Of a stretch of 64,000 nt of DNA, positions 1,211-36,992 are shown in pieces (the stretch's first letter is position 1; each line of letters opens with the position of its first letter). Position numbers and translations under genes: made by a program. This DNA is from Candidatus Woesearchaeota archaeon (GTDB lineage: Archaea > Nanobdellota > Nanobdellia > Woesearchaeales > ARS49). The stretch lies in contig JACQNC010000014.1 in NCBI GenBank assembly GCA_016203225.1, forward strand, positions 91,715-155,714, in the 5' to 3' direction. The notes under the pieces were generated by a model. The model did not search any database, was not told the origin of the DNA, and saw only the letters and a list, made by a program, of their open reading frames with translations.

Positions 1211-1747
1211 GTGAGATACCTGGCATTCCTGGCATTGTTTCTCGTCCTGCTCGCAGCCTGCCAGCCAGTCATGCCAGCGACCGAGATGAGGACTACTTCG
1301 CCTGAGCCCATGCCTCCTTCGGTGAGTGCGGAACCTTCCGCGCCAGCGCCCGACGGCGAGCCCGCACTCACTGCCGGGTTCAAGCCCACAGGCAAACTCC
1401 TTGTGGATGCGACGACACAGTACATAGAATACAACCAAGCCGACTTCGATGCGGCACGAGCAGCAGGCAAAATCGTCTATCTCGAGTTCTGGGCAGCATG
1501 GTGTCCGTTCTGCCAGCGCCTGGAACCGTTGATCAGGGAATCCATCGCCAACCTGGACGATCCTGGCGTCGTCGCGTTCCGCGTGAACTACGACAATTCA
1601 GCTGACCTCCAGAAAAAATATAATGTCATCTACCAGCACACGCACATCGTCCTCAAGACAGATGGCAGCGTTTCGTGGAAATCGCTAGACACGAACTGGA
1701 ACGATGAACTCTTCAGATCAGAGATCCAAAAAGCGAAAGGTGGTTAA
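1211..1747 (+). CDS. Thioredoxin-like lipoprotein (extracytoplasmic redoxin)
   Basis: Signal peptide with lipobox (LLAAC). Thioredoxin-fold motif WAAWCPFCQ (CxxC). Confidence 0.7.
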   Translation: MRYLAFLALFLVLLAACQPVMPATEMRTTSPEPMPPSVSAEPSAPAPDGEPALTAGFKPTGKLLVDATTQYIEYNQADFDAARAAGKIVYLEFWAAWCPFCQRLEPLIRESIANLDDPGVVAFRVNYDNSADLQKKYNVIYQHTHIVLKTDGSVSWKSLDTNWNDELFRSEIQKAKGG

Positions 1748-8795: not shown

Positions 8796-9710
8796 TCATG
8801 TCAGGTCCTGATAGTTCGTCAAACCCTTGATTTTCTTGATGACTGAAATGCCTGCGTTGCAGCCTTCACCGACAGACTTCGAGATCTGGTAGTTGCCGCC
8901 TGTGCAGCCGCCGGCAGCGAACACTCCATCGACGTTTGTCTTTCCGTCACGGTCGATCTTGATCGACTGTCCGTCCATCTCGAGCCCGAGTTTCTGGCTG
9001 AACGCCAGTGCGGTCGCGGTGCCGAGCGCCAGGAACACGCCGTCGGGCTTCTCCTCCGAATTGTCCGAGAACTTGACCTTCTCCAGTCTCTTGTCGCCGA
9101 CGAACTCGACAGCGCGGCGCTTGTCGTACTTGATCTCGCGTTGGTCCAGCATCGTCTTCAATTCAGGAGCGATCGAGAACTCCTTGCCGTTCGACACGAT
9201 CGTGATGTCATCAGTCAATCCAGTGAGCTCGAGCGCCTCTTCCGCGGCGAAACTGCTGTGGCCTATCACGAACACCCTCTTGTTCTTGTAGAACGGACCG
9301 TCGCACGCGACGCACGTATGCACGCCGCGGCCCATCAGCTTGTCCTCATTCTTGGCGCCGGAACTCTTCGCGGTCAATCCGGTGGCGATGATCAGCGCCT
9401 TTGATTGGAATTTGCGCGCATCGGCGAGCTTGACCGTGAACGAGCCACCTTTCTCCTCGGCATGCACGACTTCCGCGACAAGGTGCTCGGCGCCGTACTT
9501 CTTGACCTGCTCGACGCCACGGTCCAGTAAATCAGGACCCGAGACACCATCGCTGCCGAGGAAGTTCCCCACCTCCTGCGCCTTTATCAAACCAGTCTTC
9601 TCGATGTCGCCGATCATAAGCACTTTCAGTCCAGCGCGAGCCATGAATATGCTCGCGGCCATGCCTGCGGGACCGGCGCCTATCGTGATACAATCATAGA
9701 TCCCTGGCAT
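8796..9710 (-). CDS. Thioredoxin-reductase-like flavoprotein, translationally coupled to a Rieske protein
   Basis: Start at the internal Met (YDCITIGAGPAGMAA), CVACDG CxxC, GGCTGG near the C-terminus. The ATG overlaps the stop of the upstream Rieske gene by 1 nt (TAATG). Confidence 0.75.
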   Translation of the reverse strand: MPGIYDCITIGAGPAGMAASIFMARAGLKVLMIGDIEKTGLIKAQEVGNFLGSDGVSGPDLLDRGVEQVKKYGAEHLVAEVVHAEEKGGSFTVKLADARKFQSKALIIATGLTAKSSGAKNEDKLMGRGVHTCVACDGPFYKNKRVFVIGHSSFAAEEALELTGLTDDITIVSNGKEFSIAPELKTMLDQREIKYDKRRAVEFVGDKRLEKVKFSDNSEEKPDGVFLALGTATALAFSQKLGLEMDGQSIKIDRDGKTNVDGVFAAGGCTGGNYQISKSVGEGCNAGISVIKKIKGLTNYQDLT

Positions 9711-10015
9711 TAGGCATCCACCAGGATCTGGCCGCCTTCGACCTTGAGCTTGAAGCAGGAAACCGCTGTCGGCGCAGGCGGAGACAAGACCTTGCCAGTC
9801 GTGACATCGAACTGGCCGCCGTGCCACGGACACGTGACCGTGATGCCGTCCAGCTCGCCTTCTCCCAGCGGGCCGCCCTTGTGCGTGCAACGGCCATTTA
9901 TGCAATAGAATTTCCCTTCCACGTTCGCGATGGCGATATCCTTGTCGTTCGCCTTGAACGCGCGGATGTTCCCCAGAGGAACGTCAGATGTCTTGCAGAC
10001 CGGTACGAATGCCAA
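9710..10015 (-). CDS. Rieske [2Fe-2S] ferredoxin-like protein
   Basis: CTHKGGPL and CPWHGGQF boxes (CxH...CxxH). RBS GGGAGGTG and TATA CCTTTTTATAGC upstream. Confidence 0.8.
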   Translation of the reverse strand: MAFVPVCKTSDVPLGNIRAFKANDKDIAIANVEGKFYCINGRCTHKGGPLGEGELDGITVTCPWHGGQFDVTTGKVLSPPAPTAVSCFKLKVEGGQILVDA

Positions 10016-15848: not shown

Positions 15849-16556
15849 ATGAAATACGAGGGAACTGTCGTCCAAGTGCGGCAAGAGACGCCGCGCGTCA
15901 AGACCATCCGCGTGAGTTGGCCGGGCATCGAAGCGTTGCAGTTCGTGCCCGGACAGTTCTTCATGCTCAGCATCCCGGGATTCGTCAACCAAGCAGGCGT
16001 GCAGGTGAGGCGAGCGTACAGCATCGCGAGCGCACCGTTGGACAAGGGCTTTGTCGAATTCACCATCACTTCAAAGACCCCGACAGGACTATCAGCCAGA
16101 GCGCACGAGCTAAAGGTCGGAGACGCCCTGTCGCTCGATGGGCCTGCGGGCCATTTCGGGCTCAAACGACCGGTAAAGGACATCGCGTTCATCGCCGGCG
16201 GTTCAGGAGTCTCGAGCCTCCGTGCCATGTACCGACAGCTTCTGCTCGAAGGTCACCCGGGCCCGATCACGCTCCTGTTCGGCTTCCACGCACCAGAGGA
16301 CTTCATATTCAAGGACGAACTAGCGGAACTCCAACGAAGGCATCCGAACTTCAAAGTCATACCGACAATCACCACAGACGACCCTGCATGGACCGGAAAA
16401 CGCGGTCGTGTCACAGAACTCATCCCTCAGCTCTTCGCGGATACGAAGGACAGTGACTTCTATCTATGCGGTCCTCCTGCGATGGTGGAGGACACTATCA
16501 AGACACTCGCCGGCATCGGCGTGGCCCGCCACCGGATATTCCGTGAGGTATGGTAG
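15849..16556 (+). CDS. Ferredoxin-NADP reductase-like FAD/NAD(P)-binding oxidoreductase
   Basis: RAYSIAS (RxYS) FAD-binding motif and GGSGVS NAD-binding motif. Confidence 0.7.
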   Translation: MKYEGTVVQVRQETPRVKTIRVSWPGIEALQFVPGQFFMLSIPGFVNQAGVQVRRAYSIASAPLDKGFVEFTITSKTPTGLSARAHELKVGDALSLDGPAGHFGLKRPVKDIAFIAGGSGVSSLRAMYRQLLLEGHPGPITLLFGFHAPEDFIFKDELAELQRRHPNFKVIPTITTDDPAWTGKRGRVTELIPQLFADTKDSDFYLCGPPAMVEDTIKTLAGIGVARHRIFREVW

Positions 16557-16891
16557 TCGTCATCGCGGTAACGGACCTGTACTTCCAGGCCAAGATCATA
16601 GAGGTCGCACAGCAAGCCCGTGGTGACATCGTGCTCGCGAGCACGCAGGACGCCGTCCTCGAACAGACCCGCGAACTTGAACCCAGTCATGTCATAATCG
16701 ACCTGGACGAGAAAGCGTTCGATGCCATTGACACCATCAAGCAACTGAAGGAACAGAACGCGAGCGTCCACATCGTAGGGTTCGTAAGCCACGTCCAACG
16801 CGACCTGCAGGCCCGGGCGAAACTCGCGGGTTGTGATGATATCCTGGCGCGAAGCGCGTTCTTCACGAACCTGGCTGGATTGCTCCAGTAG
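16550..16891 (+). CDS. Receiver-domain-like protein (CheY-like)
   Basis: 7-nt overlap with the upstream gene. An acidic-pocket/VIIDLD-like segment is present. Weak. Confidence 0.35.
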   Translation: MVVVIAVTDLYFQAKIIEVAQQARGDIVLASTQDAVLEQTRELEPSHVIIDLDEKAFDAIDTIKQLKEQNASVHIVGFVSHVQRDLQARAKLAGCDDILARSAFFTNLAGLLQ

Positions 16892-17335: not shown

Positions 17336-18532
17336 TTAAGACGAGGCTTTCGGCCGCATACGGCCCAACATCACACGCGTGGGCTCGTCCATGCGTTCGT
17401 GCTCGAGCTTCCTGCACACGAGAGCCTCGTGCGCGAACACGAACACGTGCAACGTCTTGTCGCCCCTGAGCCTCGACTCGTACTTCCGTCGCTCGGTCCA
17501 GTACTTGTCCGGCGCGAGCTTCTGGCGCAGGACGACCTTGCCCGCGTTCTCCCACATGAGGACCGCGAGGATGTCCTCGAACTTGTTCTCGACCGCGTCC
17601 ACGAGTTCGTAACGCGCCTTGAGATGCGTGCTCGTCAGGAGCGTGTTGCTCGTCAGCAGCGTGTCGCGTTCATCGCTATAAAGGAAGGTGTGCTCGTCGC
17701 CGAGCTTCCAACTCAGGCCCGCTTTCGCGACCGCGGGATCGACCTCGAACATGTACTTCAGCGCCCCGGAGTTCCGCAATGGCCTCTCAGAACCATCACT
17801 CGTGAGTTCATGATGGCCCGGCAGGAGCACCGCGCTGCGTTCGTGGCGTTTTAGGTCTCCAAGATAGACCGTTAGGCGGTTCAGCGAATGGTCGACCGAT
17901 ATGAATTCCTTCTCGCAATCGAGGTCGACCTTCTGGATCTGCGGCGGCAACTCGATCGCGATGCTTGGCGTAAGCTTCCGCGAGGCATCGATCAACTGCC
18001 TGAGCGGCGGTCTGAAGCTCGTGTCGAAGCTCCGCACCTTCTCCTCGGGCGCGCGTTCAGGGTCAACGAACACGATGTCTGCCCCGACAAGGTTCTGCAA
18101 GGCCTTGAGTCCGTCCGCATGGATGAATTCGATGTTGTTCGCGTCCACCTTCTTGGCGTTCTCGAGCGCGTACCTGATCTTGCGCTTATCTATATCGATC
18201 GCGATGACCCTTTTGCAGGTGCGCGCGAACGCGATGGTCTGGATGCCCACCCCGCAACCGACATCGACCAAAGTGTCGCACGCCAGCCGTTTGGCACGGT
18301 ACTGGGCTACAAGCTCGTTGGTCGCGAACCTGAGGTCGTCCTCAGTCAGGTAGTAGTCCTCCGAGGTCTTGGTGGTGGTGAGGCGCGTCTTCGCCACCGA
18401 GCACAGCTCATCAAAGTCATGGAGGTTAAGCTGCTTCGCTATCTGTTCCTTGCTCTTTCCCCGTTTTATGAGCTCCATGATGGTCTTGACATGTACGTCG
18501 ACCATCTGAGGCGTATATGTATCGAAGATCAC
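17336..18532 (-). CDS. Class I SAM-dependent methyltransferase (Tgs1/Methyltransf_15-like motif VDVGCGVGIQTIAFA) with C-terminal domain of unknown function
   Basis: SAM-binding motif I and the post-I acidic residue (VIAIDID). Confidence 0.65.
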   Translation of the reverse strand: MIFDTYTPQMVDVHVKTIMELIKRGKSKEQIAKQLNLHDFDELCSVAKTRLTTTKTSEDYYLTEDDLRFATNELVAQYRAKRLACDTLVDVGCGVGIQTIAFARTCKRVIAIDIDKRKIRYALENAKKVDANNIEFIHADGLKALQNLVGADIVFVDPERAPEEKVRSFDTSFRPPLRQLIDASRKLTPSIAIELPPQIQKVDLDCEKEFISVDHSLNRLTVYLGDLKRHERSAVLLPGHHELTSDGSERPLRNSGALKYMFEVDPAVAKAGLSWKLGDEHTFLYSDERDTLLTSNTLLTSTHLKARYELVDAVENKFEDILAVLMWENAGKVVLRQKLAPDKYWTERRKYESRLRGDKTLHVFVFAHEALVCRKLEHERMDEPTRVMLGRMRPKASS

Positions 18533-18654
18533 GGCGCACCCTTTTTCCCTACTTCAGAAGGCATACATTTATAAACCCTCCTTCTCCTATATGAGTATAC
18601 TCGTTCTCGCGAGAGAATCGGTAGAATAGTAAACAATTCCGGAGAGACCCGTAT

Positions 18655-18804
18655 GCAATTCAATGCAGGCGGCTTCGGCGGACCGCGTCAAATGTTCGAC
18701 GCGACCTGCTCGGAGTGCCAGAAAACGTGTCAGGTTCCGTTCAAGCCCAAGGCCGAACGACCTGTCTACTGCAGCGACTGCTTCAAGAAGCACAAGCCGC
18801 AGTA
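18655..18804 (+). CDS. Small zinc-ribbon protein (49 aa)
   Basis: CSECQKTCQVPFKPKAERPVYCSDCF. RBS GGAGAG. Too short for the supplied ORF track. Confidence 0.5.
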
Positions 18805-18832
18805 ATCCGCTGATCACCTGATTAGCAAGCGA

Positions 18833-18860
18833 ATCCCTTTTCTTTTTGTCCTTTTTTTCA
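18833..18860 (+). terminator. Oligo-T tract (CCCTTTTCTTTTTGTCCTTTTTTTC) downstream of the small zinc-ribbon gene
   Basis: Archaeal-type poly-T termination signal. Confidence 0.35.
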
Positions 18861-18891
18861 TTCTTTAGTGGTTTTCATTCTTTAGTGGTAA
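18858..18891 (+). promoter_or_regulatory. Tandem 17-nt direct repeat (TTCATTCTTTAGTGGTT x2) immediately upstream of a TATA box
   Basis: Two adjacent near-identical copies end 12 nt before TTTATAAA (18903-18910). A candidate transcription-factor site. Confidence 0.45.
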
Positions 18892-20048: not shown

Positions 20049-20777
20049 ATGCAGCTCGCGAACGGCGTAGACGCCATCGATCTCGCGATATATCTTCCCG
20101 TCCACGAAACGCTAGTCCTGTCCGACCTCCACATGGGATTCGAGGAATCCCTCAACGCGCAAGGCGTCCTCGTGCCCAGGACACACTACAAGGACCTGGT
20201 CGATCGGCTGGAACTCATCTTCGCGGAACTCAAGAACCGCAGACAGCGCGTCAGCCAGGTGGTGATCACGGGCGACCTGAAGCACGAGTTCGGAGGCATC
20301 CGAAGACAGGAGTGGAAAGACGTCTCGCGCATCGTCGACTACCTTCTGCGGCGCGTAGAGAGGCTCGTCCTCATCAAGGGCAACCACGATGTCCAGCTCG
20401 GACCGATCGCGACGCGCCGCGGATTGGAACTCGTCAAGGACGTCCGGCTCGGTGACGTCCTAATAATCCATGGCGACCAGGAGCCCAATGACCTGAAGGG
20501 AGTGACGACCATCATCATGGGGCACGAACATCCCGCCATCGGGTTGCGTAGCGGAACGCGCGTTGAGCGTTTCAAATGCTACCTTGTCGGGAGATACAAG
20601 CGCAAGACGCTCATCGTGCAACCGTCAGCCAATCTCTTGACAGAAGGCAGCGATGTCATGAAAGAACAGACCTTGAGTCCCTTGCTATCAAAAGATATCC
20701 TATCATTCAAGGCTTTCGTCCTAGATGACAAGAAACGGGAGCTGCTCGACTTCGGCGTGATCAGGCGGTTGCGCTAG
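20049..20777 (+). CDS. Calcineurin-like metallophosphoesterase
   Basis: Motifs LSDLHMG, GDL, GNHD, GHEH. Confidence 0.8.
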   Translation: MQLANGVDAIDLAIYLPVHETLVLSDLHMGFEESLNAQGVLVPRTHYKDLVDRLELIFAELKNRRQRVSQVVITGDLKHEFGGIRRQEWKDVSRIVDYLLRRVERLVLIKGNHDVQLGPIATRRGLELVKDVRLGDVLIIHGDQEPNDLKGVTTIIMGHEHPAIGLRSGTRVERFKCYLVGRYKRKTLIVQPSANLLTEGSDVMKEQTLSPLLSKDILSFKAFVLDDKKRELLDFGVIRRLR

Positions 20778-22137
20778 AAACGACGCGGTTCCTGCCCGAG
20801 TTTTTCGCCTGGTACAGCGCTGTGTCAGCCGAGGAGAAAAGCTGGTTGAACCCATCCGCGTTGTCGGGGAACGCTGCCACGCCTATGCTGACGGTGAGAT
20901 TGGCGCGGCCTGGCTCGCCTTTCCGCAGTTCGCTCATCAAAGTCACGGTCTTGTCCGCAATCAACGTCCTCAGATGCTCAGCGACACCCGCAGCATGAAT
21001 CTTGTCGGTGTTCGGCAGGAACACGACGAACTCCTCGCCGCCCCAGCGTCCGACTATATCCGAGGTGCGTACGTTCTCGTGCATGATCCTCGCGACCAAC
21101 GCCAACGCGCGGTCGCCCGCGTCATGGCCGTAGGTGTCGTTGATGCCCTTGAAATGGTCGATGTCGACCACCAGCAACGCGGCGGGCCAACGGTTGCGCC
21201 GCGCCAGCGACAGTTGGGGTTCTGCCAATTGCAGGAACGTGCGCCTGTTCGGGACTTGCGTGAGGAAGTCGATCCCTCCCGCGGCAGCCTCGGTCTCGAC
21301 GTGCTCTGTCCGGTGCACGGCGAACGTCCCGGCGAGGTTCAACACGCGTTCTGCCTCCGGCCCGAGCGCAACCTTGTGCCTGAGGATTATGCGTTGGAGC
21401 TCCTGGAATTCTGAAGGCTTGGAGAACCCCGCGATCACCTTCAGCAACGCGTCAGCGGTCATCTTGTTGGCCTGCTGAAGATCGAGGATGATCCGCTCGA
21501 CCGTACGCTGTTTGGCCAGCGCGAGGTTCAACGCGTCGAGAGCGTCCTTCTGCTTCCGCAACACGAGCTCAAGTGCGCGTTCGACGGCATCGAGGTCGTC
21601 GGCCCACGCGACGGCCTGGTTCGGGCCCGGCTGCGGCGTCTGCTCGATGCTCCGAAGCGTTGCCTGTTCCTGCTCCAGGAGGCGTTTCTTGTCCGACTGC
21701 CTGGCCCGCCAATCGCCCAATCTCGCGGTGATGAACGCGGAGATGTCCGTGATCTGTTTGCGCTTGGCCGCGAGCGCCAGCCTTTCAGCGAACGCGGCTG
21801 CCATGCCCTTCTGTTCGAGTTCCTGCTGCAGAGCTTCCGTATCCTCGAACTGGATCTTCGACTGCTGCAGGATCTGCTGGCGCACTGACTCGAACTCCTG
21901 ATCGAGCGGTCGCAACGTCACCATGAACGAAGGGAAGATATCAGCCATGATGCGAACGATGACCTGCCGGACGGTCGCGGTGTCGTTCTGGCGCAACGCG
22001 AAAATCAACCCCCTGACAAGCTGCCGGTGCGGCTCAATCGTGCCTAGCTCTGCCTCGAGGCTGTGCAATTGCAGCTGTTCGTCAGAAGTGAGGCTGGCGA
22101 GAAGCTGGATGATCCGTCGCGCGTCCTCCTCTTTCAC
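20761..22137 (-). CDS. GGDEF-domain diguanylate cyclase with N-terminal coiled-coil domain
   Basis: Complete GGDEF domain: RRTF, DIDHFKGINDTYGH, GGEEF active-site variant, SIGVA, ADTALYQAK. TATA about 25 nt upstream. Confidence 0.85.
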   Translation of the reverse strand: MKEEDARRIIQLLASLTSDEQLQLHSLEAELGTIEPHRQLVRGLIFALRQNDTATVRQVIVRIMADIFPSFMVTLRPLDQEFESVRQQILQQSKIQFEDTEALQQELEQKGMAAAFAERLALAAKRKQITDISAFITARLGDWRARQSDKKRLLEQEQATLRSIEQTPQPGPNQAVAWADDLDAVERALELVLRKQKDALDALNLALAKQRTVERIILDLQQANKMTADALLKVIAGFSKPSEFQELQRIILRHKVALGPEAERVLNLAGTFAVHRTEHVETEAAAGGIDFLTQVPNRRTFLQLAEPQLSLARRNRWPAALLVVDIDHFKGINDTYGHDAGDRALALVARIMHENVRTSDIVGRWGGEEFVVFLPNTDKIHAAGVAEHLRTLIADKTVTLMSELRKGEPGRANLTVSIGVAAFPDNADGFNQLFSSADTALYQAKNSGRNRVVSSATA

Positions 22138-22162
22138 AGGCGGGATACGACAAGAACTATAT

Positions 22163-22549
22163 TTAAAGCTTCAGGTGGTGCTTGTAGTCTCTCGCAAGCG
22201 CTTCGGTGATGGTCTTGCAATGACCGTCGACTACCGAGAAGGAATTCTTTGAAGCGCCTTCGAGGCGTGAAGAGACGTCATCCTTGTGCGCGCCGAGCAG
22301 GTCCGCGAACGCCGAAGACGGGTCGCGGCATTCCTGAGCAGCGGTCTGGACAGCCTCCGCGAGCAGGGTCACGATGTAGCTCATCGTCCCGAACACGAAC
22401 GCCCGATGGCGCACGTAGTCCGCGGAGAAATCGGTGGGTCGCTCGATGGATTGCTCGCTCGCGAACCGTCTGAGGATCTCCTCGGTGCGTCCTATGCGTT
22501 TCGTCCATTGCTCGAGCACTTCGATGCCCGGCACAGCGACATCTGCCAT
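22163..22549 (-). CDS. Hypothetical protein
   Basis: TATA TTTATAAA (22573-22580) lies 24 nt upstream (leaderless). Confidence 0.45.
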   Translation of the reverse strand: MADVAVPGIEVLEQWTKRIGRTEEILRRFASEQSIERPTDFSADYVRHRAFVFGTMSYIVTLLAEAVQTAAQECRDPSSAFADLLGAHKDDVSSRLEGASKNSFSVVDGHCKTITEALARDYKHHLKL

Positions 22550-22647
22550 GATTTGATGGCAGCGAACAGCTCTTTATAAATCTTTGCTTTTATACTACTT
22601 AAAAGAGACAACAAATCCTTCTTAAACGAAGACCGCAATCATAAGCC

Positions 22648-23289
22648 ATGCTCGCCGTGCTTGCGCCTATCCTGCACATAGACCAGTATCTAGGCATGCT
22701 CATCCAGGAATTCGGGATAATGGTATACGCGCTGCTTTTCTTGATCATCTTCGCAGAGACCGGGCTCGTCGTGTTACCGTTCCTGCCAGGCGACAGCCTG
22801 CTATTCGCGGCAGGCGCGTTCGCCGCGCTCGGCAGCCTCAATATCTGGACCCTGCTGATCCTACTCGCTATCGCCGCGATACTTGGGGACACGGCGAATT
22901 ACTGGATCGGCGCAAAGGTCGGCCCTCGCGTCTTCACCAAGGAACACGGCATCCTCTTCAGGCGCGAATACCTCGACCGCACGCACGCGTTCTACGACAA
23001 GTACGGCACGAAGACGATAATCCTGGCGCGGTTCGTTCCGATCGTTCGCACCTTCGCGCCGTTCGTGGCAGGCATCGGCAAGATGCGCTACGTGACCTTC
23101 CTCGCGTACAACGTCATAGGCGGACTCGCATGGATCATTTTCTTCGTCCTCGGCGGGTTCTACTTCGGCAACATCCCGCTGGTCAAGGACAACTTCGGCC
23201 TCGTCATCATCGTGATAATCGTGCTCTCCGTGCTGCCGCTCGTGTGCGAGATCTGCTACCACAAACTGAAGAAGTGTCCTACTGCCTGA
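22648..23289 (+). CDS. DedA/SNARE-associated family membrane protein
   Basis: Motif ETGLVVLPFLPGDSLLFAAGA. Confidence 0.85.
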   Translation: MLAVLAPILHIDQYLGMLIQEFGIMVYALLFLIIFAETGLVVLPFLPGDSLLFAAGAFAALGSLNIWTLLILLAIAAILGDTANYWIGAKVGPRVFTKEHGILFRREYLDRTHAFYDKYGTKTIILARFVPIVRTFAPFVAGIGKMRYVTFLAYNVIGGLAWIIFFVLGGFYFGNIPLVKDNFGLVIIVIIVLSVLPLVCEICYHKLKKCPTA

Positions 23290-23300
23290 ACGCTCCTTGT

Positions 23301-23450
23301 CGTTCCTCGTCCCTCCGCTTTTCTCCCCCGGCAGTTTTGAGGTCGCGTTACATGCAGAACGCAGCGTTCTGCTGTACAGCCGAGACCTTCGGGCTCGGCA
23401 TGTATCGGTATTGATTCAATAGCAAGTATACCACTACAAACCTGCATGGG
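23301..23450 (+). repeat. Intergenic structured repeat, copy D (with nested hairpin insertions)
   Basis: CCGCTTTTCTCCCCCGGCAGTTTTG...hairpins CAGAACGC/GCGTTCTG and GCCGAG/CTCGGC...TATCGGTATTGATTCAATAG...ACCACTACAAACCTGCATGGG. Confidence 0.65.
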
Positions 23451-23530
23451 CATGGCTGCTTTGGAAGTTTGGGCGGCGTATCTCTGTTTCATGCAGAAGT
23501 TTTTTAAACGGCTTCTTTGCCTTTCAGGGT

Positions 23531-24484
23531 ATGCCTTTGAATGAGAAACTGGACGACATCCAGGATGGCCAAGACGGCATCCCTGGTAGTGACGATGATT
23601 ATGTCGGGGTGCTTGGCTGTCTCCATTACGCAAAACTCGGGCTTCTCACGACCGCTGCAACGGTGGCGCTCATCGCGCTGAGCTGTTCCAACGGCACATT
23701 GCGCGCGAAAGGCGAACAGCAACCGCAGCAGATCGTAATCAAGGAAAGCGAGGAGGACGCAGCCTACCGCCGCGCCCGGCGCGAACACCTCGAAGGAGAC
23801 CTGCCTGCCGCGGTCGGACTATACGAAAAATGCACCGATGATGCGCACAAACGACGCGTCGCATCACACTTATTATCGATCAAGACAACATACCGGACGC
23901 TCGACAGCCTCACGGATCTAACGATACAAAGCCTCAAACGAAACGCACAGACCTATCGCGAGGCCATCCATGACGCGAAGGCGGCTGTCGAAGACGCTCC
24001 CGAGAACCCATCAGCATACGCTGCGCTCGGGAGACTACAAATGTGCGCAGGCAATTTCGACGCAGCCGAGACAGCATACAAGGAATCCTTCGAACTCCTA
24101 CGCAACGCAGGCAAGGACGACGTAGCTGTCCGCGCAGGCATCATCCAAACAGCCATCTTCAAGAAGGACTATGACGCGGCCATCGACCTCGCGGAGAGGA
24201 CATGGAACCTCTATCCCTGGGAGACAGATATCGCCCAGCGACTGATAGATGCGTACAACCTGGCGGGCAGGATAGACAAGGCGCGCTCGGTCGTGTCGGC
24301 ATTGCGCATCCAGGACCCTAAGAACGAAGGATACATCCGTCAAGAGGCCAGCCTCGCGTGGTATTGCGAAGACTACGGCGGTGTCATCGGAGCGTACGCA
24401 GAGCTCATAAAGCGTGATGTCAAGGACAAGCGGTTCCTCCAGGAACAGATAGTCCAGCTCCAGACATTGCTCAAGAATGACTAG
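23531..24484 (+). CDS. TPR-repeat lipoprotein
   Basis: Lipobox-like LSCS after a hydrophobic stretch. Multiple TPR-like helical repeats. Confidence 0.55.
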   Translation: MPLNEKLDDIQDGQDGIPGSDDDYVGVLGCLHYAKLGLLTTAATVALIALSCSNGTLRAKGEQQPQQIVIKESEEDAAYRRARREHLEGDLPAAVGLYEKCTDDAHKRRVASHLLSIKTTYRTLDSLTDLTIQSLKRNAQTYREAIHDAKAAVEDAPENPSAYAALGRLQMCAGNFDAAETAYKESFELLRNAGKDDVAVRAGIIQTAIFKKDYDAAIDLAERTWNLYPWETDIAQRLIDAYNLAGRIDKARSVVSALRIQDPKNEGYIRQEASLAWYCEDYGGVIGAYAELIKRDVKDKRFLQEQIVQLQTLLKND

Positions 24485-24685: not shown

Positions 24686-27130
24686 TCAGAACCCGCCGAG
24701 CGTGCTCTGGCTCCCTTGCTGCGTGAACTCGTCCACGCTCACGCCCAAAACCGCGAAAATGCGTTCCACCGCAGGGATGACCTGGTGTTCGATGTAGTAG
24801 TCCGCATCATACTCTTCCTGGTCGGCCTCATCCTCGAGCTTGACCCTGTCGCGGATCTTGCCCTTGCCCTTCGTCACTACATACTTGATCATGTCGCCTG
24901 GCCCGACGTCGACACCGCGGGCCTTCAAACGCTGAGCAGCAGCCACGTGCGGACCAATCGCGGCGTACTCGCCCACGTCGCGCGTGAGTTGAGTCCAGAT
25001 GACGACCTTTTCCAAAGGGACCTTGTTGGACTTCAGGTCCGCGATGACACTCTTTACGTGCGCGAGCGCCTTCTGGCCATCACCTTCCCCGAGGATGATC
25101 CGCAAGACCTCCTTCTGGGTCTCCTTCGCGATGAACGCAGTGTTCCGTCTGACCGTCTCGAAGCCACGGATCTTCATGCTGCCCTTGCGGTCGATGAGCG
25201 CGTACTTCTTCTTCGCGCCTGCCTCCGATGCCTTGACAGCGACGAAGATGCCGCGGGGGTAGAAGCTTTCGTATTCCAACTCCATCAGGCCGGGCAATTC
25301 CTTGTTGATGCGCTGCACGAACGCCTTCGCATCATCCTCCGATTTCTTGCCTAGCATAAGAAAAACCGAGTCAGTGTCAGAATAAAGCACGGTGAACTTA
25401 TCCTTCTGCGCGCTCCCGATGACCTTCGTGATATAGTACCGTCCGTACGCGAGGATGCTTTGCCCGCATTCGAAACAGTACCAGCGCGCAGGCGCGAACC
25501 CAAGATAGCCGAAGAACGCGTTGGACAGAACTTTCAACGCCTCACTGCGCGCAGCGAGCAGGGTGTCCTTGGTCTGCTTGAGCAAAACCTTGATACGCGC
25601 GCGGCGCGCGATCAGGTCCTCGATTATGGTCGCGAGGAACCCCCGCTTCTTCGTGCAGAACCGGTACGTTTCGCCTTCCATCGGGACGAGCGGGGCATCC
25701 GGGCAGCAGGAACAGTTAAACGTGCCGGGAGATATGTTGTGAGAGGCGATGATGCTCGGATAAAGCGAACGATAGTCATACACCACGATGTCCTTGTACA
25801 GTCCTGGTGTGGGCTCGAACACGAGCGCGCCTTTGAGACGGAGCTGCATGCGCGCCGATTGCTGCATGTAGGGGGGCCTGTTCGGTGTGACCTCGTTGAA
25901 AGCCGCGGCTTGCTTTATGATGTACCACTCGACGAGCTGCGAGAAGCTCATCCTGTTGATGTCCCACAACGGAAGCCCGATGATCTTGACGAACTCGATC
26001 ATGTTCGGCAACACCTTCAACGTGAGATCGTAAGTGAGCTTGGAATCCTGCAGGTTGTACTTAGCGAACGTGTCCAGCTCCTCGGAGGCTGCGTCCCATG
26101 CGGGCGCGAGCCGGTCAAGGTCGACGTCGTGCTTGCCCTCTCCCAGAAGCTCTCCCGCGACCGCGTCCAGCGTGAACACGTCGGTCTCCATGCTCCTGCT
26201 GATTATCTTCCTTATGAACTTGAAGACGTCGACGTGAACGATGCCCGCGATCTGTGCGGTCGTCTGGCCGCGACCCGAGACCTTCAGCTCGGAATGATCC
26301 AGACCGATGTCGAGCTTGAGCCTGTACTTGTCCGCGCGCGTCCGGATGTACGGCAGGTCGAATCCATCCGAGAAATATCCTGCGAGGATGTCCGGCTTGT
26401 ACTCATCCACGAGCTCCTTGAAGCGCTGCAACAGATCCGCCTCGCTCGGCACGACCTCGATATACTTCTCGTGCGTGGGGAACTGTTTCCACGTGATCAC
26501 CTTGTGGAACCCGTCGCCGTAAAGAGCCAACATAAGGATTGGGTGCTTGTCGGGCATAACGCGCTTGCCCAGAGGATTGTACGTTTCGATGTCGACCGCC
26601 AGGATGCGCGGAGTTGTGAGAGCCTCCTCGTTCGCCTGCTTCACGGACGTGGCTTTCAGGACAGGCACGCGAGACTCCTCGACCATCTGCTCGCCAGTCG
26701 CTTCGATAAGAGTCATCGGTTGAAGGCACTTGTCTATCAGGTACCTACGCGCGAACTTTATGTCGTACTCGAAACAATCCTTGATCCCCGGCCATTTACG
26801 GATGGCGTCCTTTATCTCCGGCACTCCCGACGGCATGTTGACGACCACCTTGAGCAGGCGCTGCTCCTGTTCGTTGACCCGCTTCGTGATGTCCTCTGTC
26901 CTCACAACGAAGAAATCGCCTTCCTTGCTGCTCTGCCGCACTGTCGCGAGGTCGTTCTTCAGGGTCTGAAGGTCATCATCCTTCGGCCAGACATAGAAAT
27001 ACGGCTCGAAACGCGCGTCATGCACGCAGACCTGCTTTCCGTCGGGCGTGCGGCCGTACAAGTGGATGACCGCCTTCTTGTTCAGGATCCGGTACGAGAT
27101 GTCGGTGAGATAAAACCGCAGCGTTGTCAT
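24686..27130 (-). CDS. polB: DNA polymerase family B
   Basis: Motifs YDYRSLYPSII, YSDTDS, KKKYA. Confidence 0.95.
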   Translation of the reverse strand: MTTLRFYLTDISYRILNKKAVIHLYGRTPDGKQVCVHDARFEPYFYVWPKDDDLQTLKNDLATVRQSSKEGDFFVVRTEDITKRVNEQEQRLLKVVVNMPSGVPEIKDAIRKWPGIKDCFEYDIKFARRYLIDKCLQPMTLIEATGEQMVEESRVPVLKATSVKQANEEALTTPRILAVDIETYNPLGKRVMPDKHPILMLALYGDGFHKVITWKQFPTHEKYIEVVPSEADLLQRFKELVDEYKPDILAGYFSDGFDLPYIRTRADKYRLKLDIGLDHSELKVSGRGQTTAQIAGIVHVDVFKFIRKIISRSMETDVFTLDAVAGELLGEGKHDVDLDRLAPAWDAASEELDTFAKYNLQDSKLTYDLTLKVLPNMIEFVKIIGLPLWDINRMSFSQLVEWYIIKQAAAFNEVTPNRPPYMQQSARMQLRLKGALVFEPTPGLYKDIVVYDYRSLYPSIIASHNISPGTFNCSCCPDAPLVPMEGETYRFCTKKRGFLATIIEDLIARRARIKVLLKQTKDTLLAARSEALKVLSNAFFGYLGFAPARWYCFECGQSILAYGRYYITKVIGSAQKDKFTVLYSDTDSVFLMLGKKSEDDAKAFVQRINKELPGLMELEYESFYPRGIFVAVKASEAGAKKKYALIDRKGSMKIRGFETVRRNTAFIAKETQKEVLRIILGEGDGQKALAHVKSVIADLKSNKVPLEKVVIWTQLTRDVGEYAAIGPHVAAAQRLKARGVDVGPGDMIKYVVTKGKGKIRDRVKLEDEADQEEYDADYYIEHQVIPAVERIFAVLGVSVDEFTQQGSQSTLGGF

Positions 27131-27206
27131 GCTCTGACAGGGATTCTGAGACTATATTAACCATTCGGGGCAATCTTTAAATAACGATGCAGGACTTGTT
27201 GAAGCC

Positions 27207-28145
27207 ATGTACGACGTCATCATCATCGGAGGCGGTGCAGCGGGGCTCACCGCGGCCATATACGCCTGTCGCAAGGCGTTCAAGACGCTCGTGGTCTCGC
27301 CAGAATACGGTGGCCAGACCAATCTCACCAGCCACATCGAGAACTATCCAGGATTCATCGTCTCCACGGGCTGGGACCTGATGAGCAAGTTCAAGGAACA
27401 GGCCGAACACTTCGGCGCCGAGACGCGCACCGCGAAAGCGGTCAAGGTCGAGAAAAACGGAGAGAAACAGTTCACGGTTCATTTCGAGGACAAGACGTCC
27501 GAAAAATGCAAAGCGGTCATTCTATGCCACGGTAAGTTGCCACGGCCGCTGAACATCCCTGGCGAGAAGGATTTCCTCGGACGCGGACTTAGCACGTGCG
27601 CGACGTGCGACGCGCCGTTGTACAAGGGCAAGACGGTCGCAGTGATCGGTGGCGGGAACGCCGCGCTCGAGGCTGTCGAGGAACTGCGCAACGCAGGCGC
27701 AAAAAAGGTCTATCTGGTGCACCGTCGCTCTGAATTCCGCGCAGACGAGATCACGGTCAAGAAAGTCAAGGCGTTGCCCGGCGTCGAGTTCGTGCTGAAC
27801 CATTCGCCTTCAGCGATAAAGGGCGACAAGTACGTCACCTCATTCGAAATCGAGGACGTCGCGACCAAGAAGCGCAGGGAACTGAAGGTCGACGGAGTGT
27901 TCTCAGAGATAGGGCATATCGCGGATTCTGAGATGGTCAGACATCTCTGCAAGCTAAACGACCACGCAGAAGTCCTGGTCGACGAGGCGGGGAACACTTC
28001 ATGCCCCGGAATCTTCGCCGCAGGCGACATCACGCCCGTTCGCTACAAGCAGACAGTCATCGCCGCAGGCGAAGGCGCCAAAGCGGCGCTTGAGTGCCAC
28101 CGGTATCTAACTGGCGGCACGGCGACAGGAGAGTACAGTAAGTAG
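27207..28145 (+). CDS. trxB: Thioredoxin reductase
   Basis: MYDVIIIGGGAAG, CATCDA redox centre, GDITP. Confidence 0.85.
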   Translation: MYDVIIIGGGAAGLTAAIYACRKAFKTLVVSPEYGGQTNLTSHIENYPGFIVSTGWDLMSKFKEQAEHFGAETRTAKAVKVEKNGEKQFTVHFEDKTSEKCKAVILCHGKLPRPLNIPGEKDFLGRGLSTCATCDAPLYKGKTVAVIGGGNAALEAVEELRNAGAKKVYLVHRRSEFRADEITVKKVKALPGVEFVLNHSPSAIKGDKYVTSFEIEDVATKKRRELKVDGVFSEIGHIADSEMVRHLCKLNDHAEVLVDEAGNTSCPGIFAAGDITPVRYKQTVIAAGEGAKAALECHRYLTGGTATGEYSK

Positions 28146-28992: not shown

Positions 28993-29598
28993 GTGTTCGT
29001 CGACGTGCAGAACCTCTACTACTCCGCGAAATTCACGCACAGCGCGCTCCCGAACTTCAGGCCGATACTCGATGATGTAGTCCGCGGCCGTACGCTCGTC
29101 AGGGCGATCGCGTATGTCATCCGCGCCGAGGAAGTCAACCGAGAGGAATTCTTCAACGTCCTATCGAACATGGGTTTCGAGATCCGCGCCAAGGACGTCC
29201 AAGTCTTCGCCGATGGCGCCAAGAAGGGCGACTGGGACATCGGAATCGCGATGGACGCCATCGAGCTCGCGCCCAGGCTAGACACGATAATAATCGTGTC
29301 AGGCGACGGCGACTTCGTGCCGTTGGTTGAACACCTGCGTAGAGCGCTCGGCTGCCGAGTCGAAGCGGCCGCGTACGGCAAGAACACGTCGCAGAAACTG
29401 ATCGAAGCGGTCGACCTGTTCACCGATCTCGACAAGAACCCGAAATACCTGCGCGGCCATAGACCGCACGAGGAACGTCACGGCGAGATAGACACGCACG
29501 CGGTCAAGGCAGTGACTGAGCTACGGACAGAGATAACCAGTGCACCATCTCAACGGCCGAGACAGCAGATGCGCAGGCGCAGACCACAACGGAAGTGA
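28993..29598 (+). CDS. NYN/LabA-like PIN-domain protein
   Basis: VFVDVQN ... IIIVSGDGDFVPLV. GTG start. Confidence 0.7.
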   Translation: MFVDVQNLYYSAKFTHSALPNFRPILDDVVRGRTLVRAIAYVIRAEEVNREEFFNVLSNMGFEIRAKDVQVFADGAKKGDWDIGIAMDAIELAPRLDTIIIVSGDGDFVPLVEHLRRALGCRVEAAAYGKNTSQKLIEAVDLFTDLDKNPKYLRGHRPHEERHGEIDTHAVKAVTELRTEITSAPSQRPRQQMRRRRPQRK

Positions 29599-29602
29599 GA
29601 CC

Positions 29603-29926
29603 ATGTTGAGCATCACATCGCAGAATTTCCGGTCTGAAGTCTTGGGCAGCAAGCTGCCGGTCATAGTCGATTTCTGGGCAGAATGGTGCGGCCCCTGCCG
29701 CATGCTCGGCCCGGTGTTCGAGAAAGTCTCGAAGGACTTCGCAGGCAAGATGACGTTCGCGAAGCTGAACGTCGACACGTCGCCCGAGCTCGCGCAGAAG
29801 TACGACGTGCGCGGCATCCCGTGCATGATCATATTCAAGAACGGCAAGGAAGCAGATAGATTGGTAGGTGCGCTTTCTGAGAGTATCTTGCGCGAGAAGA
29901 TCACGTCTGCGTTGAGAAGCCCTTGA
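29603..29926 (+). CDS. trxA: Thioredoxin
   Basis: WAEWCGPCR. RBS GGAAGTGAG. ATG at 29603. Confidence 0.85.
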   Translation: MLSITSQNFRSEVLGSKLPVIVDFWAEWCGPCRMLGPVFEKVSKDFAGKMTFAKLNVDTSPELAQKYDVRGIPCMIIFKNGKEADRLVGALSESILREKITSALRSP

Positions 29927-32309: not shown

Positions 32310-32921
32310 TTACGGGACTTCGACGAATATCTTGTAGATCTTCTTCGTGTACCAGACGCTCAAGTCAGAGTTCGCATCGCACGTGCCGGGTGGCGTCGCG
32401 CCGTATTGAGAGACGTCCCACACGCACACGTTGAACGAGTACGTGCCTTGCGGCGTGGGGGCGTTATCGGCGATGCTGTCGCCCACCACGACCCGGATGG
32501 GAATCGCTTGGTAGTCATTGTTCTTTATCGCGTGCGGGCCAGGCGAGTAAAGCACCCAGTTGTTCGTGATGTAGACCGGAGAGGTCTCCATTATCTCGGT
32601 CTCCTGTGCGTCGAACCCTTTGCTGAACTCCACGCTCACTCCGAACTCTGAATTCCGGCCGAGCACGTTCTGCACGCCAAGCCAGAACGTCGCGCCCTTG
32701 CCGCGCGAAAGACGCGCCTTGTTCAACGGGATCGCTACGATGTTGCCGTCGCGGATGAGAGACACGAGCTGAGCCTCCGTGTCGCGGTCGAGCTCCTGCC
32801 TGAACTCCTCGGTCGTCGTGTAGAACTGGCGCAGGAACCACAACGATCCCGCGAAGATGATGACTGTCAGTATCAGGATGACGAAGAAACCGATGCTCAG
32901 CTCGAAACCTCTTTTGTCCAT
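32310..32921 (-). CDS. Pilin-like protein with class-III-type signal peptide
   Basis: MDKRG|FELSIGFFVILIL: a charged N-region, then a hydrophobic stretch with Glu near its start. Confidence 0.45.
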   Translation of the reverse strand: MDKRGFELSIGFFVILILTVIIFAGSLWFLRQFYTTTEEFRQELDRDTEAQLVSLIRDGNIVAIPLNKARLSRGKGATFWLGVQNVLGRNSEFGVSVEFSKGFDAQETEIMETSPVYITNNWVLYSPGPHAIKNNDYQAIPIRVVVGDSIADNAPTPQGTYSFNVCVWDVSQYGATPPGTCDANSDLSVWYTKKIYKIFVEVP

Positions 32922-33052: not shown

Positions 33053-34441
33053 TCAAATGCTTCCCGGGGTTATGAACGTGATCTTCTCCAACGATTTCGT
33101 GAACGTGCCCTTCTTGACCTGGGCGTTCTGTTCGTACGAGTATGCGACGCTCAACGTCACCGTGTGCTGCGCCTCGGGACGCGCGACGAACGTGATGGGG
33201 ACGTCTGCAGTGACGGTCTGGCCAACGGCGTTCAATTCCTGGTTGACGACGACGAACCCCAGCTCCTTGCTGCCGTCGAGGGCGCGCACGGTCTCGATCC
33301 TGACCTTGCTGATGCCTGCCTGGACCTCGTATAGTGTGAATTCGGCGCGCAAGCGCTCCGTGACTGTGTTGAACGGCTTGTTGTACGTGTACCGATTGTT
33401 CAGGTGGAAGATGTTGAGGTTGCGGTCGTCGAACAGCGACACGGGCGTGACCTGGATTCCTGATCGCACCTGCGCGACGCACGCCTGAGACTGGCAGCCC
33501 AGGTCCATGTACTGGCCGGCGCTCCCCGAACAGGGCCCGCAGTCTGCTGCGCAGGTGCACTTGTTCTCGTTTCCGTCGCACTGGAAGTTGCCGCACGCGC
33601 CCGCGATAGGGGTGTGCTCGCAGAAGAACTGCGTCTCCGGCCCGCACGTGTCCTCGGTGCCTGCGTTGCCGTCGTCGCAGTCAGGACAGCCGTAATCGAC
33701 GTTAGGCTTGACCCACAAGAACGTCGTGCCGCGGTACGGGCTCAGGAGTTGGCCTGTCTTGCGCTGCGAAGATATAGTGTATTCGTAGTCGATCTTGAGC
33801 TGAGGATCGGTCACAGATCCCTCGAGGTCAGCCGTGACCAAATCGAGATGCAGGTCGTCGCTCACGGCGGCGCCCTTGCCAGAGAACGGCTTGTTCGCGT
33901 CACTGTCGATCAGGATGACGTTCTGCTTGTTTTTGAGCGCAGAGAGCTCGTAGCCGATGATGCGCACGTCGCTCGCGCCGGTCGCGATGGTGTCGAGCGT
34001 AGTCCGGACAGTGAACGGGTCGCGCTTGAAGTTGAACGGCTGGTTGTAAGTGACAGTGACCTTGAACTGGTTGCCCAGGCTGTTTATCGGGTTGGTGACG
34101 CTCACTGGCTTCACGTTCGCCTGAGGCACGGCGATGCTGCACACCGTGTCATCATTGATGCAGGTCTTCTGCAGAAGCGTGCTGCCCGGAACCGCGCCCG
34201 CGCACGTGCCGCAATCGGCTGCGCAGATGCACTCGTTCTCTGTGGTTTCACACTGGCCGTTCCCGCACGCGCCAGGGATCGGCGTGCGGACGCACTTGTT
34301 GTCGACACAACTGCTCGTGTATCCCTGCTTGTCGCAATCAGCTGCCTTTGCGCACTCCTTCTTTGCGCAGCCGGCGAGTATTATGGCGAAAGCAAGAAGA
34401 CCTACGAACAGTACGACCTTCACACCCTTTTTCATGGTCAT
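33053..34441 (-). CDS. Secreted Cys-rich lipoprotein with internal tandem duplication
   Basis: Lipobox LAGC. Two copies of the module CGNxQC...ENxCxCAADCGxC, each followed by a beta-rich domain. Confidence 0.55.
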   Translation of the reverse strand: MTMKKGVKVVLFVGLLAFAIILAGCAKKECAKAADCDKQGYTSSCVDNKCVRTPIPGACGNGQCETTENECICAADCGTCAGAVPGSTLLQKTCINDDTVCSIAVPQANVKPVSVTNPINSLGNQFKVTVTYNQPFNFKRDPFTVRTTLDTIATGASDVRIIGYELSALKNKQNVILIDSDANKPFSGKGAAVSDDLHLDLVTADLEGSVTDPQLKIDYEYTISSQRKTGQLLSPYRGTTFLWVKPNVDYGCPDCDDGNAGTEDTCGPETQFFCEHTPIAGACGNFQCDGNENKCTCAADCGPCSGSAGQYMDLGCQSQACVAQVRSGIQVTPVSLFDDRNLNIFHLNNRYTYNKPFNTVTERLRAEFTLYEVQAGISKVRIETVRALDGSKELGFVVVNQELNAVGQTVTADVPITFVARPEAQHTVTLSVAYSYEQNAQVKKGTFTKSLEKITFITPGSI

Positions 34442-36300: not shown

Positions 36301-36365
36301 TCTTTATAAACCGATACCCTTTTAAGCAAGTCCAGCTACCCGCATTTCAGAAAGAGGTGACCCGC

Positions 36366-36992
36366 ATGAATAAGAAGGCAGCGCTCGAGCTGTCCATCAA
36401 CGCGATCGTCGTTCTCATCCTAGCAATCACAATCCTCGGCTTGGGAATCGGCTTCATCAGGGGCCAGTTCGGCGGCCTGAGCGAGCAGTTCACACAGGTC
36501 AGGGCCGAGATCAAGGACCAGCTCATCACCAAGATCCGCGAATCGGGCGACCTGCTCGTGTTCAACCGCGCCGAGCTCGAGGTGGCGACGGGCAAGAAGG
36601 ACACGTTCTACATCGGGGTCAAGAACACGGAAAGCAACCCTGACGGAGACACCGTCTGTTACCAGATAGGCGTCAAGTGCATCCGCTCACTGAAATCGGA
36701 CAACTCCTGCACGCCGGACATCCAAGGCGACGCGGGCAACAACATCGTCGTCGGCGGAAAGGTCGACGGCCAAGGCGCGGACCAGGTAACGTGGTTCCAG
36801 GTGTTCGACACCGTCGACATCAAGAATCTCGACGTCGGCGTCTATCCAGTCACGGTGCAGATCGCGAAGGGCAAGCCAGACACGTACGCGATGGAGATCA
36901 TCGTGGCGAAAGACAGCCAGAACGGCGACTGCAGCCGTGGCGGCGTGTTCACACGCTACCAGAGCAAACAGTTCTTCGTAGTGCTCTCCTGA
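36366..36992 (+). CDS. Pilin-like protein with class-III-type signal peptide
   Basis: MNKKAALELSINAIVVLILAI, the same ELSI motif as the gene at 32310-32921. RBS AAGAGGTGA. TATA 36303-36310. Confidence 0.45.
   Translation: MNKKAALELSINAIVVLILAITILGLGIGFIRGQFGGLSEQFTQVRAEIKDQLITKIRESGDLLVFNRAELEVATGKKDTFYIGVKNTESNPDGDTVCYQIGVKCIRSLKSDNSCTPDIQGDAGNNIVVGGKVDGQGADQVTWFQVFDTVDIKNLDVGVYPVTVQIAKGKPDTYAMEIIVAKDSQNGDCSRGGVFTRYQSKQFFVVLS

Follow-up and report, generated by a model that had tools for sequence, protein, structure and literature searches.

Do archaea make their own cyclic di-GMP (c-di-GMP)? The molecule is regarded as an essentially bacterial messenger, and censuses leave it undecided whether the GGDEF and HD-GYP genes seen in archaeal metagenome-assembled genomes (MAGs) are real or contaminants (PMC5847659; PMC10086821; 10.1101/2021.11.05.467447). 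We analyzed a 64,000-nucleotide (nt) stretch of DNA from a Candidatus Woesearchaeota archaeon (assembly GCA_016203225.1, contig JACQNC010000014.1), called the window below, which raises this question through a single gene. At 20761-22137, on the minus strand, the window contains a complete open reading frame (ORF) of 458 amino acids (aa) with a GTG start (GenBank MBI4145595.1, listed there on a Woesearchaeota contig of 173,765 bp), encoding an N-terminal helical module followed by a GGDEF domain. This ORF is a genuine chromosomal gene of a Woesearchaeota (DPANN) archaeon, intact and selectively maintained. With a probability of roughly three in four, and judging from its sequence, we take the product to be a domesticated, product-inhibited, soluble diguanylate cyclase that is controlled through a novel helical module.

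A 2018 census of archaeal signaling listed a single GGDEF protein in complete archaeal genomes, CAJ37382 of Methanocella arvoryzae; it described a REC-GGDEF protein of Ca. Micrarchaeum as inactivated and left open whether such genes are genuine (PMC5847659). According to Romling (2022), GGDEF proteins in archaeal contigs still await confirmation (PMC10086821), and Galperin and Chou viewed MAG-derived archaeal HD-GYP proteins as potential contamination (10.1101/2021.11.05.467447). Braun et al. counted more than 300 BLAST matches, with Asgard and DPANN bins accounting for many of them, and their search for c-di-GMP in Haloferax and Sulfolobus was negative (PMC8646023). Our own phrase search of the literature for archaeal diguanylate cyclases returned no match, and with it no assayed archaeal enzyme of this kind.

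The GGDEF domain and its active site

A first-pass annotation, made by a model from the letters and ORF translations alone, had described a complete GGDEF domain at this position on the strength of several hallmark motifs. All of them (PNRRTF, DIDHFKGINDTYGH, GGEEF, SIGVA and ADTALYQAK) are indeed present in the 458-aa ORF. The catalytic domain comprises residues 289-451 (20785-21273, minus strand), a span on which family profiles, sequence matches in the PDB, Foldseek and an AlphaFold2 (AF2) model all bear. These residues matched the 161-position Pfam profile PF00990 from its position 3 to its end, 161 (E = 1.2e-45; 155.6 bits, cut-off 23.8), and TIGR00254 with E = 6.8e-52 (175.6 bits, cut-off 37.4). 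When the PDB was searched with the cyclase sequence, only diguanylate cyclases were matched, namely GcbC, a Marinobacter cyclase, WspR, DosC and PleD. The AF2 model of the domain had a predicted local distance difference test (pLDDT) score of ~86-95, and its comparison with GGDEF crystal structures by Foldseek gave E values down to 6.5e-16, template modeling (TM) scores of 0.85-0.90 and root-mean-square deviations of 2.3-2.8 Å. The domain is a canonical member of a known family, and GenBank already labels the gene GGDEF.

The active site was examined residue by residue, using the four-member family described below. The GGEEF motif lies at residues 366-370 (21028-21042, minus strand), as located from the sequence and from alignment to WspR and GcbC; G366, G367, E368 and E369 are invariant in all four members, and I replaces F in one. 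D325, K330, N333, D342, K445 and R449 are invariant columns as well. The segment DIDHFKGINDTYGHDAGD aligns column for column with WspR, GcbC and 3ign, and RTSD and GGEEF also fall onto their counterpart motifs. From these alignments, D325 and E368 would contact the metal, N333 and D342 the guanine, and K445 and R449 the phosphates. The corresponding PleD residues are D327 and E370 for the metal, N335 and D344 for the guanine, and K442 and R446 for the phosphates.

Upstream of the GGEEF motif is an RxxD allosteric inhibitory (I) site, R357-T-S-D360 (21058-21069, minus strand), which aligns with RSSD of WspR and RPAD of GcbC and is followed by five residues and then G366. Both R357 and D360 are invariant in the family, and the site corresponds to R359xxD362 of PleD. 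An RxxD placed five residues before GG[D/E]EF defines the I-site, product-inhibited subclass, and the cyclase has exactly this arrangement. Judged by its residues, the catalytic domain is apparently an intact and active diguanylate cyclase.

The same residues bear on which nucleotide would be made. An active domain might form a different product, such as 3',3'-cyclic GMP-AMP (cGAMP) in the manner of Hypr-GGDEF enzymes, or might serve as a nucleoside triphosphatase; some GGDEF enzymes are promiscuous (the Hypr class; cited in PMC10249747). The lack of any recognizable c-di-GMP receptor or phosphodiesterase nearby could also be counted in favor of such an output. The DxD-FK-ND-GH-GD motif, however, has a pattern identical to that of WspR and GcbC, both of which form c-di-GMP. 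In Hallberg's 2016 work on Hypr enzymes, the specificity position equivalent to PleD D344 is reportedly Ser or Thr, whereas here it is Asp342 in four of four family members. Because this guanine-specifying Asp is kept, the sequence excludes the Hypr subclass, which forms cGAMP, and we consider a different product or a nucleoside triphosphatase role unlikely.

The gene in its archaeal context

A bacterial GGDEF gene could have been misjoined to an archaeal contig, or misbinned with it, and there are grounds to consider this. In reviews, GGDEF and HD-GYP genes from archaeal MAGs are regarded as possible contamination (PMC5847659; 10.1101/2021.11.05.467447; PMC10086821), the nearest GGDEF domains are all bacterial, and the adjacent DedA gene fits a bacterial equivalog model. 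The gene lies, however, inside 64 kb of archaeal sequence. The first-pass annotation had named PolB, TFB, RtcB/archease and L10e as archaeal neighbors, and a hidden Markov model (HMM) scan of the window bore this out: we recovered PolB, RtcB, a TIGR00024 phosphoesterase, archease, L10e and TFB with its zinc ribbon, and also an archaeal/eukaryotic-type ProRS, a Ski2-like DSHCT helicase and an MJ1316 domain. Archaeal markers of this kind flank the GGDEF gene on both sides. The nearest named relatives of the TFB, at 86-95% identity, are all from Candidatus Woesearchaeota or Nanoarchaeota MAGs. The GGDEF gene is convergent with the archaeal phosphoesterase gene, and the two overlap by 17 nt at their 3' ends. 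The block of genes to which the GGDEF gene belongs is not bordered by any meaningful repeats, direct or inverted.

We then compared the locus with other assemblies. The junctions are identical in two of them (L001 and L002), which may share their source samples with the MAG. L003, a contig from an unrelated run, matches the window collinearly over 14.7 kb at ~81% nucleotide identity, and it carries an 80%-identical orthologue of the GGDEF protein (P0002) in the same slot.

The comparison of base composition and codon usage that the first-pass annotation had called for gave a host-like result. In codon usage the GGDEF gene lies at a distance of 0.101 from the rest of the window, one of the lowest values for the 67 ORFs, whose mean is 0.18; its GC content at third codon positions (GC3) is typical. 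A recent horizontal transfer had been suspected from the GC content of 0.628 at 21-22 kb, and was rejected because GC3 and codon usage are those of the host; the excess sits at first codon positions and so reflects amino-acid composition. Measured against L003, the ratio of nonsynonymous to synonymous substitution rates (dN/dS) of the gene is 0.112 (0.115 for the N-terminal part and 0.095 for the GGDEF domain), and that of its neighbors is 0.05-0.20, all of these being only approximate since dS is near saturation (~0.9-1.7). Taken together, the L003 locus, the host-like codon usage, the neighbor-like purifying selection and the host promoter geometry described below make a chimera or a binning error, by which the contig would in truth belong to a bacterium, very unlikely indeed.

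Selection also speaks to whether the domain has fallen silent and now serves as a receptor or scaffold that binds c-di-GMP or GTP. Degenerate GGDEF receptors are common in bacteria, and the sole DPANN case that has been discussed, the Ca. Micrarchaeum protein, was called inactivated (PMC5847659). In the Woesearchaeal protein, by contrast, the GGEEF motif, both metal ligands and the guanine and phosphate contacts are intact and invariant across the family, and the low dN/dS of the GGDEF domain likewise runs against loss of function. We find a silent domain hardly probable.

History of the locus

To ask where the domain came from, we searched the GTDB representatives (185,579 species-representative genomes, a collection that does not include the source MAG itself). 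The best 80 matches were all bacterial, covered the GGDEF domain only, reached at most 47% identity and were spread over many phyla; the best domain-only match has sigma-70, OmpA, FecR and EAL genes as its neighbors. These loci suggest that the GGDEF domain is of bacterial origin. The first-pass annotation had proposed a PF00990 search and a phylogeny of the domain to trace such a transfer. The profile match was full-length, as given above, but the neighbor-joining (NJ) tree was star-like and resolved no donor, with the four-member family forming a clade in 1 of 100 bootstraps and its three closest members in 14 of 100.

Synteny bears on the slot that the gene occupies. Two more distant Woesearchaeal loci (L091 and L090), with 67-78% protein identity to the window, keep a backbone of FNR, REC, methyltransferase, zinc-ribbon, 98-aa ORF and phosphoesterase genes and, beyond the interval, PolB and TrxR. 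Their phosphoesterase-PolB interval measures 1.2-1.4 kb and is filled by a SET-domain gene (PF00856, E = 8e-27; 7723-8127 in L091 and ~694-1146 in L090, minus strand) that is convergent with the phosphoesterase gene. Neither locus has the GGDEF gene or the three genes that accompany it in the window, which encode an orphan 128-aa protein, a DedA-family protein and a TPR-repeat protein, whereas L003 has all four. The 3.7-kb block at 20761-24484 is therefore lineage-specific, and the SET-domain gene that fills the slot in GGDEF-less relatives marks the phosphoesterase-PolB interval as a variable hotspot on a conserved backbone. Either the block was acquired ahead of the split between the window and L003 lineages, or other lineages have lost it; the GGDEF gene is not a recent transfer.

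Promoter and start codon

A TATA element belonging to the gene itself had been noted about 25 nt upstream. We located it as the TATA-like octamer TTTAAATA at 22160-22167 (minus strand), 22 nt upstream of the GTG, where it overlaps the stop of the upstream 128-aa ORF. In the comparison with L003, TTTAAATA is kept, the 22-nt spacer has diverged, and conservation is back exactly at the GTG, which supports the GTG as the start codon. The distant locus L085, which carries one of the remote family members described below, has the same TTTAAATA at the same 22-nt spacing and with the same overlap with the stop of its upstream ORF.

This spacing is the usual one in the window. When TATA-like octamers were tallied by their distance to start codons, 13 loose-motif matches fell in the bin 21-23 nt before a start and almost none elsewhere. 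The octamer TTTAAATA occurs five times, counting both strands, and in four of these five cases a start codon follows after 22-23 nt. Further genes with a TATA-like octamer at 21-23 nt include L10e, TrxR and triose-phosphate isomerase. A second octamer, TTTATAAA (22573-22580, minus strand), stands 23 nt upstream of the ATG that opens the 128-aa ORF, within a nearly invariant divergent promoter region of ~60 nt that is shared with DedA. Examples of the TTTAWAWA octamer are found at 27176-27183 (plus strand), 46970-46977 (plus strand), 59126-59133 (minus strand) and 22573-22580. The almost exclusive placement of such octamers 21-23 nt before starts suggests that most genes of this genome are transcribed leaderless or near-leaderless, and the position of TTTAAATA at the window-typical spacing indicates that the cyclase gene uses the host's own, apparently leaderless, promoter geometry.

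The N-terminal helical module

The region ahead of the GGDEF domain, previously estimated at about 290 aa, is a module of 288 aa (21274-22137, minus strand) that AF2 predicts to be all-helical; residues 113-166 and 172-222 form long helices, and residues 260-287 a helix that leads into the GGDEF domain. Its pLDDT is 66 overall and 83-93 in two core stretches. The 288 aa gave no match in Pfam or NCBIfam, and no transmembrane or hydrophobic segment was found in the cyclase. A profile search of PDB sequences with the module gave no match either, and Foldseek against the PDB returned nothing at E <= 1e-3, only helical bundles of a generic or designed kind. Stalk-plus-GGDEF structures (SiaD-SiaC, GCN4-WspR and DgcB) ranked among the best extended fold matches.

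The family is very small. When 1.84 billion representative proteins were searched exhaustively with phmmer, the only real relatives other than the query were P0124 (E = 1e-21) and P0125 (E = 5e-13); the 80% orthologue P0002 is covered in that set by the query's own cluster. In both relatives the module is fused to an intact GGDEF domain, and the N-terminal identity to them is 26-31%. A DNA-pattern scan of JGI metagenomes for further N-terminal relatives found none. The contigs that carry the two distant members are 1.7-2.7 kb long and differ strongly in base composition (GC 0.535 for L085-L086 and 0.355 for L087-L089), from which it appears that the architecture of module plus GGDEF has spread across quite different genomes.

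The most conserved N-terminal motif, D19-E20-Q21...H25-x-L27-E28-A29-E30-L31...H37 (22027-22083, minus strand), consists of invariant family columns, and W143 and W178 are shared by the family besides. Its conservation makes this motif a candidate ligand, metal or partner interface. We regard the module as a helical domain that is new and very rare, and as a putative sensor. Its position and shape fit a role seen in many cyclases, and by that analogy it may act as both dimerization stalk and sensor.

Neighboring genes and candidate partners

The closest neighbor on the upstream side is the orphan 128-aa ORF (GenBank MBI4145596.1; 22163-22549, minus strand), which ends 25 nt upstream of the GGDEF gene. 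It shares 75% aa identity with its L003 counterpart at a dN/dS of 0.20, and these two are the only such sequences among 5.8 billion proteins. Searches against Pfam, NCBIfam, PADLOC and the PDB gave no match. In L085, which carries P0124, a 109-aa ORF likewise ends 25 nt before the cyclase gene; hhalign aligned it collinearly with the 128-aa ORF at a weak level (22% identity, E = 0.07), and phmmer was negative. The upstream ORF beside P0125 (L087) is unrelated to the 128-aa ORF. The idea that the 128-aa ORF is a split-off piece of the sensor was rejected, as it resembles neither the N-terminal module nor any chain in the PDB.

We hypothesize that the 128-aa protein could be a partner or regulator of the cyclase, by analogy with the activation of SiaD by SiaC. 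SiaD, which is activated by the small protein SiaC (PDB 7e6g), and DgcB (6ttr) likewise have a helical stalk directly before the GGDEF domain, and here, too, a protein of ~110-130 aa is encoded beside the cyclase (in the window and in L085). The SiaD model of NCBIfam (NF038266, diguan_SiaD) was the second-best match in that database, through the GGDEF domain only and with 153.6 bits against a cut-off of 290. Unlike that of SiaD, the N-terminal module of the Woesearchaeal cyclase is far longer, at 288 aa, and unrelated in sequence, and the 128-aa ORF has no Pfam match. By sequence, the two genes are not a pair of the SiaD/SiaC type; the likeness is architectural only, and no SiaA/SiaB-type partner-switch genes were seen.

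Beyond the 128-aa ORF lie the other two genes of the lineage-specific block, both on the plus strand. The DedA-family membrane protein (22648-23289) matched the bacterial equivalog model NF008102 above its cut-off (E = 7e-79; 264.6 bits, cut-off 236), and the TPR-repeat protein (23531-24484) matched Pfam TPR families. Given the equivalog score of DedA and its absence from the empty-site relatives, the whole four-gene block may be of bacterial-type origin. The backbone flanks are the archaeal TIGR00024 metallophosphoesterase (20049-20777, plus strand; E = 1e-51) on one side and the family-B DNA polymerase (24686-27130, minus strand), syntenic in L003, L090 and L091, on the other. We looked at the phosphoesterase as a dedicated c-di-GMP phosphodiesterase and disfavor it, since it is a backbone gene and is present in GGDEF-less relatives. 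A weak stand-alone REC-like ORF (16550-16891) also belongs to the backbone, and so neither gene is a dedicated partner of the cyclase.

A variable, lineage-specific block with an orphan partner gene also brings anti-virus defense to mind, in which the two genes would work through a nucleotide signal of the kind used in CBASS (cyclic oligonucleotide-based antiphage signaling) or type III CRISPR systems. GGDEF and Cas10 palm domains are related, and some homologues carry a faint Cas10-Cmr2_palm2 annotation. Yet the canonical GGDEF family scores of the cyclase stand far above any Cas10-like score, no nuclease, pore or TIR-type effector is adjacent, and a PADLOC-DB search of the cyclase, the 128-aa ORF and their neighbors (six proteins, E <= 0.01) returned zero matches. 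A defense role is, in our view, very doubtful.

Other features of the window

Several observations were made along the way. The weak REC-like ORF and a eukaryotic-type Ser/Thr protein kinase of 639 aa (53243-55162, plus strand), which is encoded just upstream of TFB (55616-56545) and has a long C-terminal extension of helical character, are the only other signaling proteins seen in the window. L003 has an extra stand-alone response-regulator receiver gene (1633-2067, plus strand) between TrxR and PolB, where the window has only 77 nt.

A 50-aa zinc-ribbon gene (18653-18805, plus strand; PF23477, zf_Tbcl_2) encodes a protein 100% identical to its L003 orthologue. The region of ~370 nt around it (~18500-18870, including the promoter) has 94% DNA identity, compared with ~81% around it, and a dS of 0.035 compared with ~0.9. 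This near-identity could reflect strong constraint at the nucleotide level or a recent exchange.

Two ORFs of ~200 aa without a Pfam match (32310-32921, minus strand, and 36357-36992, plus strand) begin with MDKRGFELSIGFFVILIL and MTRMNKKAALELSINAIVVLILA, respectively, N-termini that resemble archaeal class-III (type IV pilin-like) signal peptides. A Cys-rich secreted protein is encoded close by (33053-34441), and the two ORFs possibly encode surface or attachment structures. Thiol-redox genes are unusually dense in the window (184-3594, 8796-9905, 27207-28145, 29540-29926 and 46374-46952), the set comprising three thioredoxin-reductase-like flavoproteins, a DsbD-type membrane protein and several thioredoxin and AhpC/TSA-family proteins.

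Discussion

The reading that we favor, a domesticated and soluble Woesearchaeal cyclase under product inhibition and the control of its helical module, can be set out as a mechanism. PleD, WspR and DgcZ-type enzymes provide the established basis for catalysis by GGDEF dimers. By this model, each GGDEF domain would bind one GTP-Mg2+, and two domains would meet as an antiparallel dimer to convert two GTP into c-di-GMP and two pyrophosphates. The 288-aa module, ending in helix 260-287, would most likely be the dimerization stalk and sensor that gates the productive meeting of the catalytic domains. The module might take its input from the orphan 128-aa protein, by binding it, or from a ligand or metal at the invariant DEQ..H.LEAEL..H motif, and product bound at the RxxD site (R357-D360) would exert feedback inhibition. 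Transcription would start from the gene's own host-type TATA promoter and yield a leaderless or near-leaderless mRNA. The gene would have entered the lineage as part of the four-gene block before the window and L003 split, with a catalytic domain ultimately of bacterial type, and would since have become fully domesticated. If the sequence is a fair guide, the cyclase probably synthesizes c-di-GMP in vivo.

Several points weigh against this reading. As the first-pass annotation had observed for EAL and HD-GYP, the partners expected of a c-di-GMP system are missing locally: among ~67 window ORFs of at least 90 aa there is no EAL (PF00563), HD-GYP or other HD-type, PilZ or second GGDEF protein, and a search of the window at Rfam gathering thresholds found no c-di-GMP riboswitch, only three tRNAs. 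A complete system, with a phosphodiesterase and a known receptor alongside the cyclase, is thus not encoded within these 64 kb. The model of the N-terminal module has only moderate confidence and is built on four sequences. L003 is the only fully independent sample, and the dN/dS values taken from it carry the imprecision of a nearly saturated dS. The star-like GGDEF tree means that neither a donor nor the monophyly of the family can be shown. Finally, c-di-GMP itself is undescribed or undetected in archaea (2023 review PMC10249747; PMC8646023).

How does the protein compare with known cyclases? PleD of Caulobacter, WspR of Pseudomonas and GcbC of P. fluorescens have the same full GGDEF domain (39-42% identity in structural alignments, fold TM 0.85-0.90), with the same GGEEF, the same metal, guanine and phosphate contacts and an RxxD five residues upstream. 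Unlike them, the cyclase described here belongs to an archaeal host, has the 288-aa helical module in place of a REC, PAS, GAF or membrane sensor, and is encoded by a gene with an archaeal TATA, apparently leaderless promoter. M. arvoryzae CAJ37382 (REC-PAS-PocR-GGDEF-HD-GYP) and the REC-GGDEF protein of Ca. Micrarchaeum are likewise GGDEF proteins of archaeal genomes, presumably acquired from Bacteria (PMC5847659; 10.1101/2021.11.05.467447). The Woesearchaeal cyclase differs from both in having no REC, PAS or HD-GYP domain, and its GGDEF domain is intact, whereas that of Micrarchaeum was described as inactivated. For its archaeal provenance there is evidence from synteny, selection, codon usage and the promoter, beyond bin membership alone. 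What is new here is this documented provenance, the N-terminal module with its tiny family, and the conserved arrangement of two genes linked by a TATA element.

For one case, then, the locus settles the question of real gene or contaminant through several independent genomic lines. The enzyme is short, soluble and apparently active, and it could be synthesized and assayed without culturing the organism, which makes the use of c-di-GMP in archaea testable with a single recombinant protein. Should it prove active, one would ask what degrades and senses c-di-GMP in a reduced DPANN genome, and whether the messenger relates to the host-attached lifestyle. A broader possibility, which we put forward tentatively and hold to be appreciably less probable than its opposite, is that two orphans, the 128-aa gene and the GGDEF gene with its helical sensor, together make up a self-contained module for c-di-GMP that is specific to archaea and has a TATA of its own at a conserved spacing. 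Such a module would circulate among DPANN archaea (those of the window and of L003, and probably that of L085) and give these episymbionts true c-di-GMP signaling. In that case Archaea would have their first functional c-di-GMP system, one with non-canonical receptors, and the module might control surface attachment to a host or biofilm, or even emit a signal that is read by neighboring bacteria.

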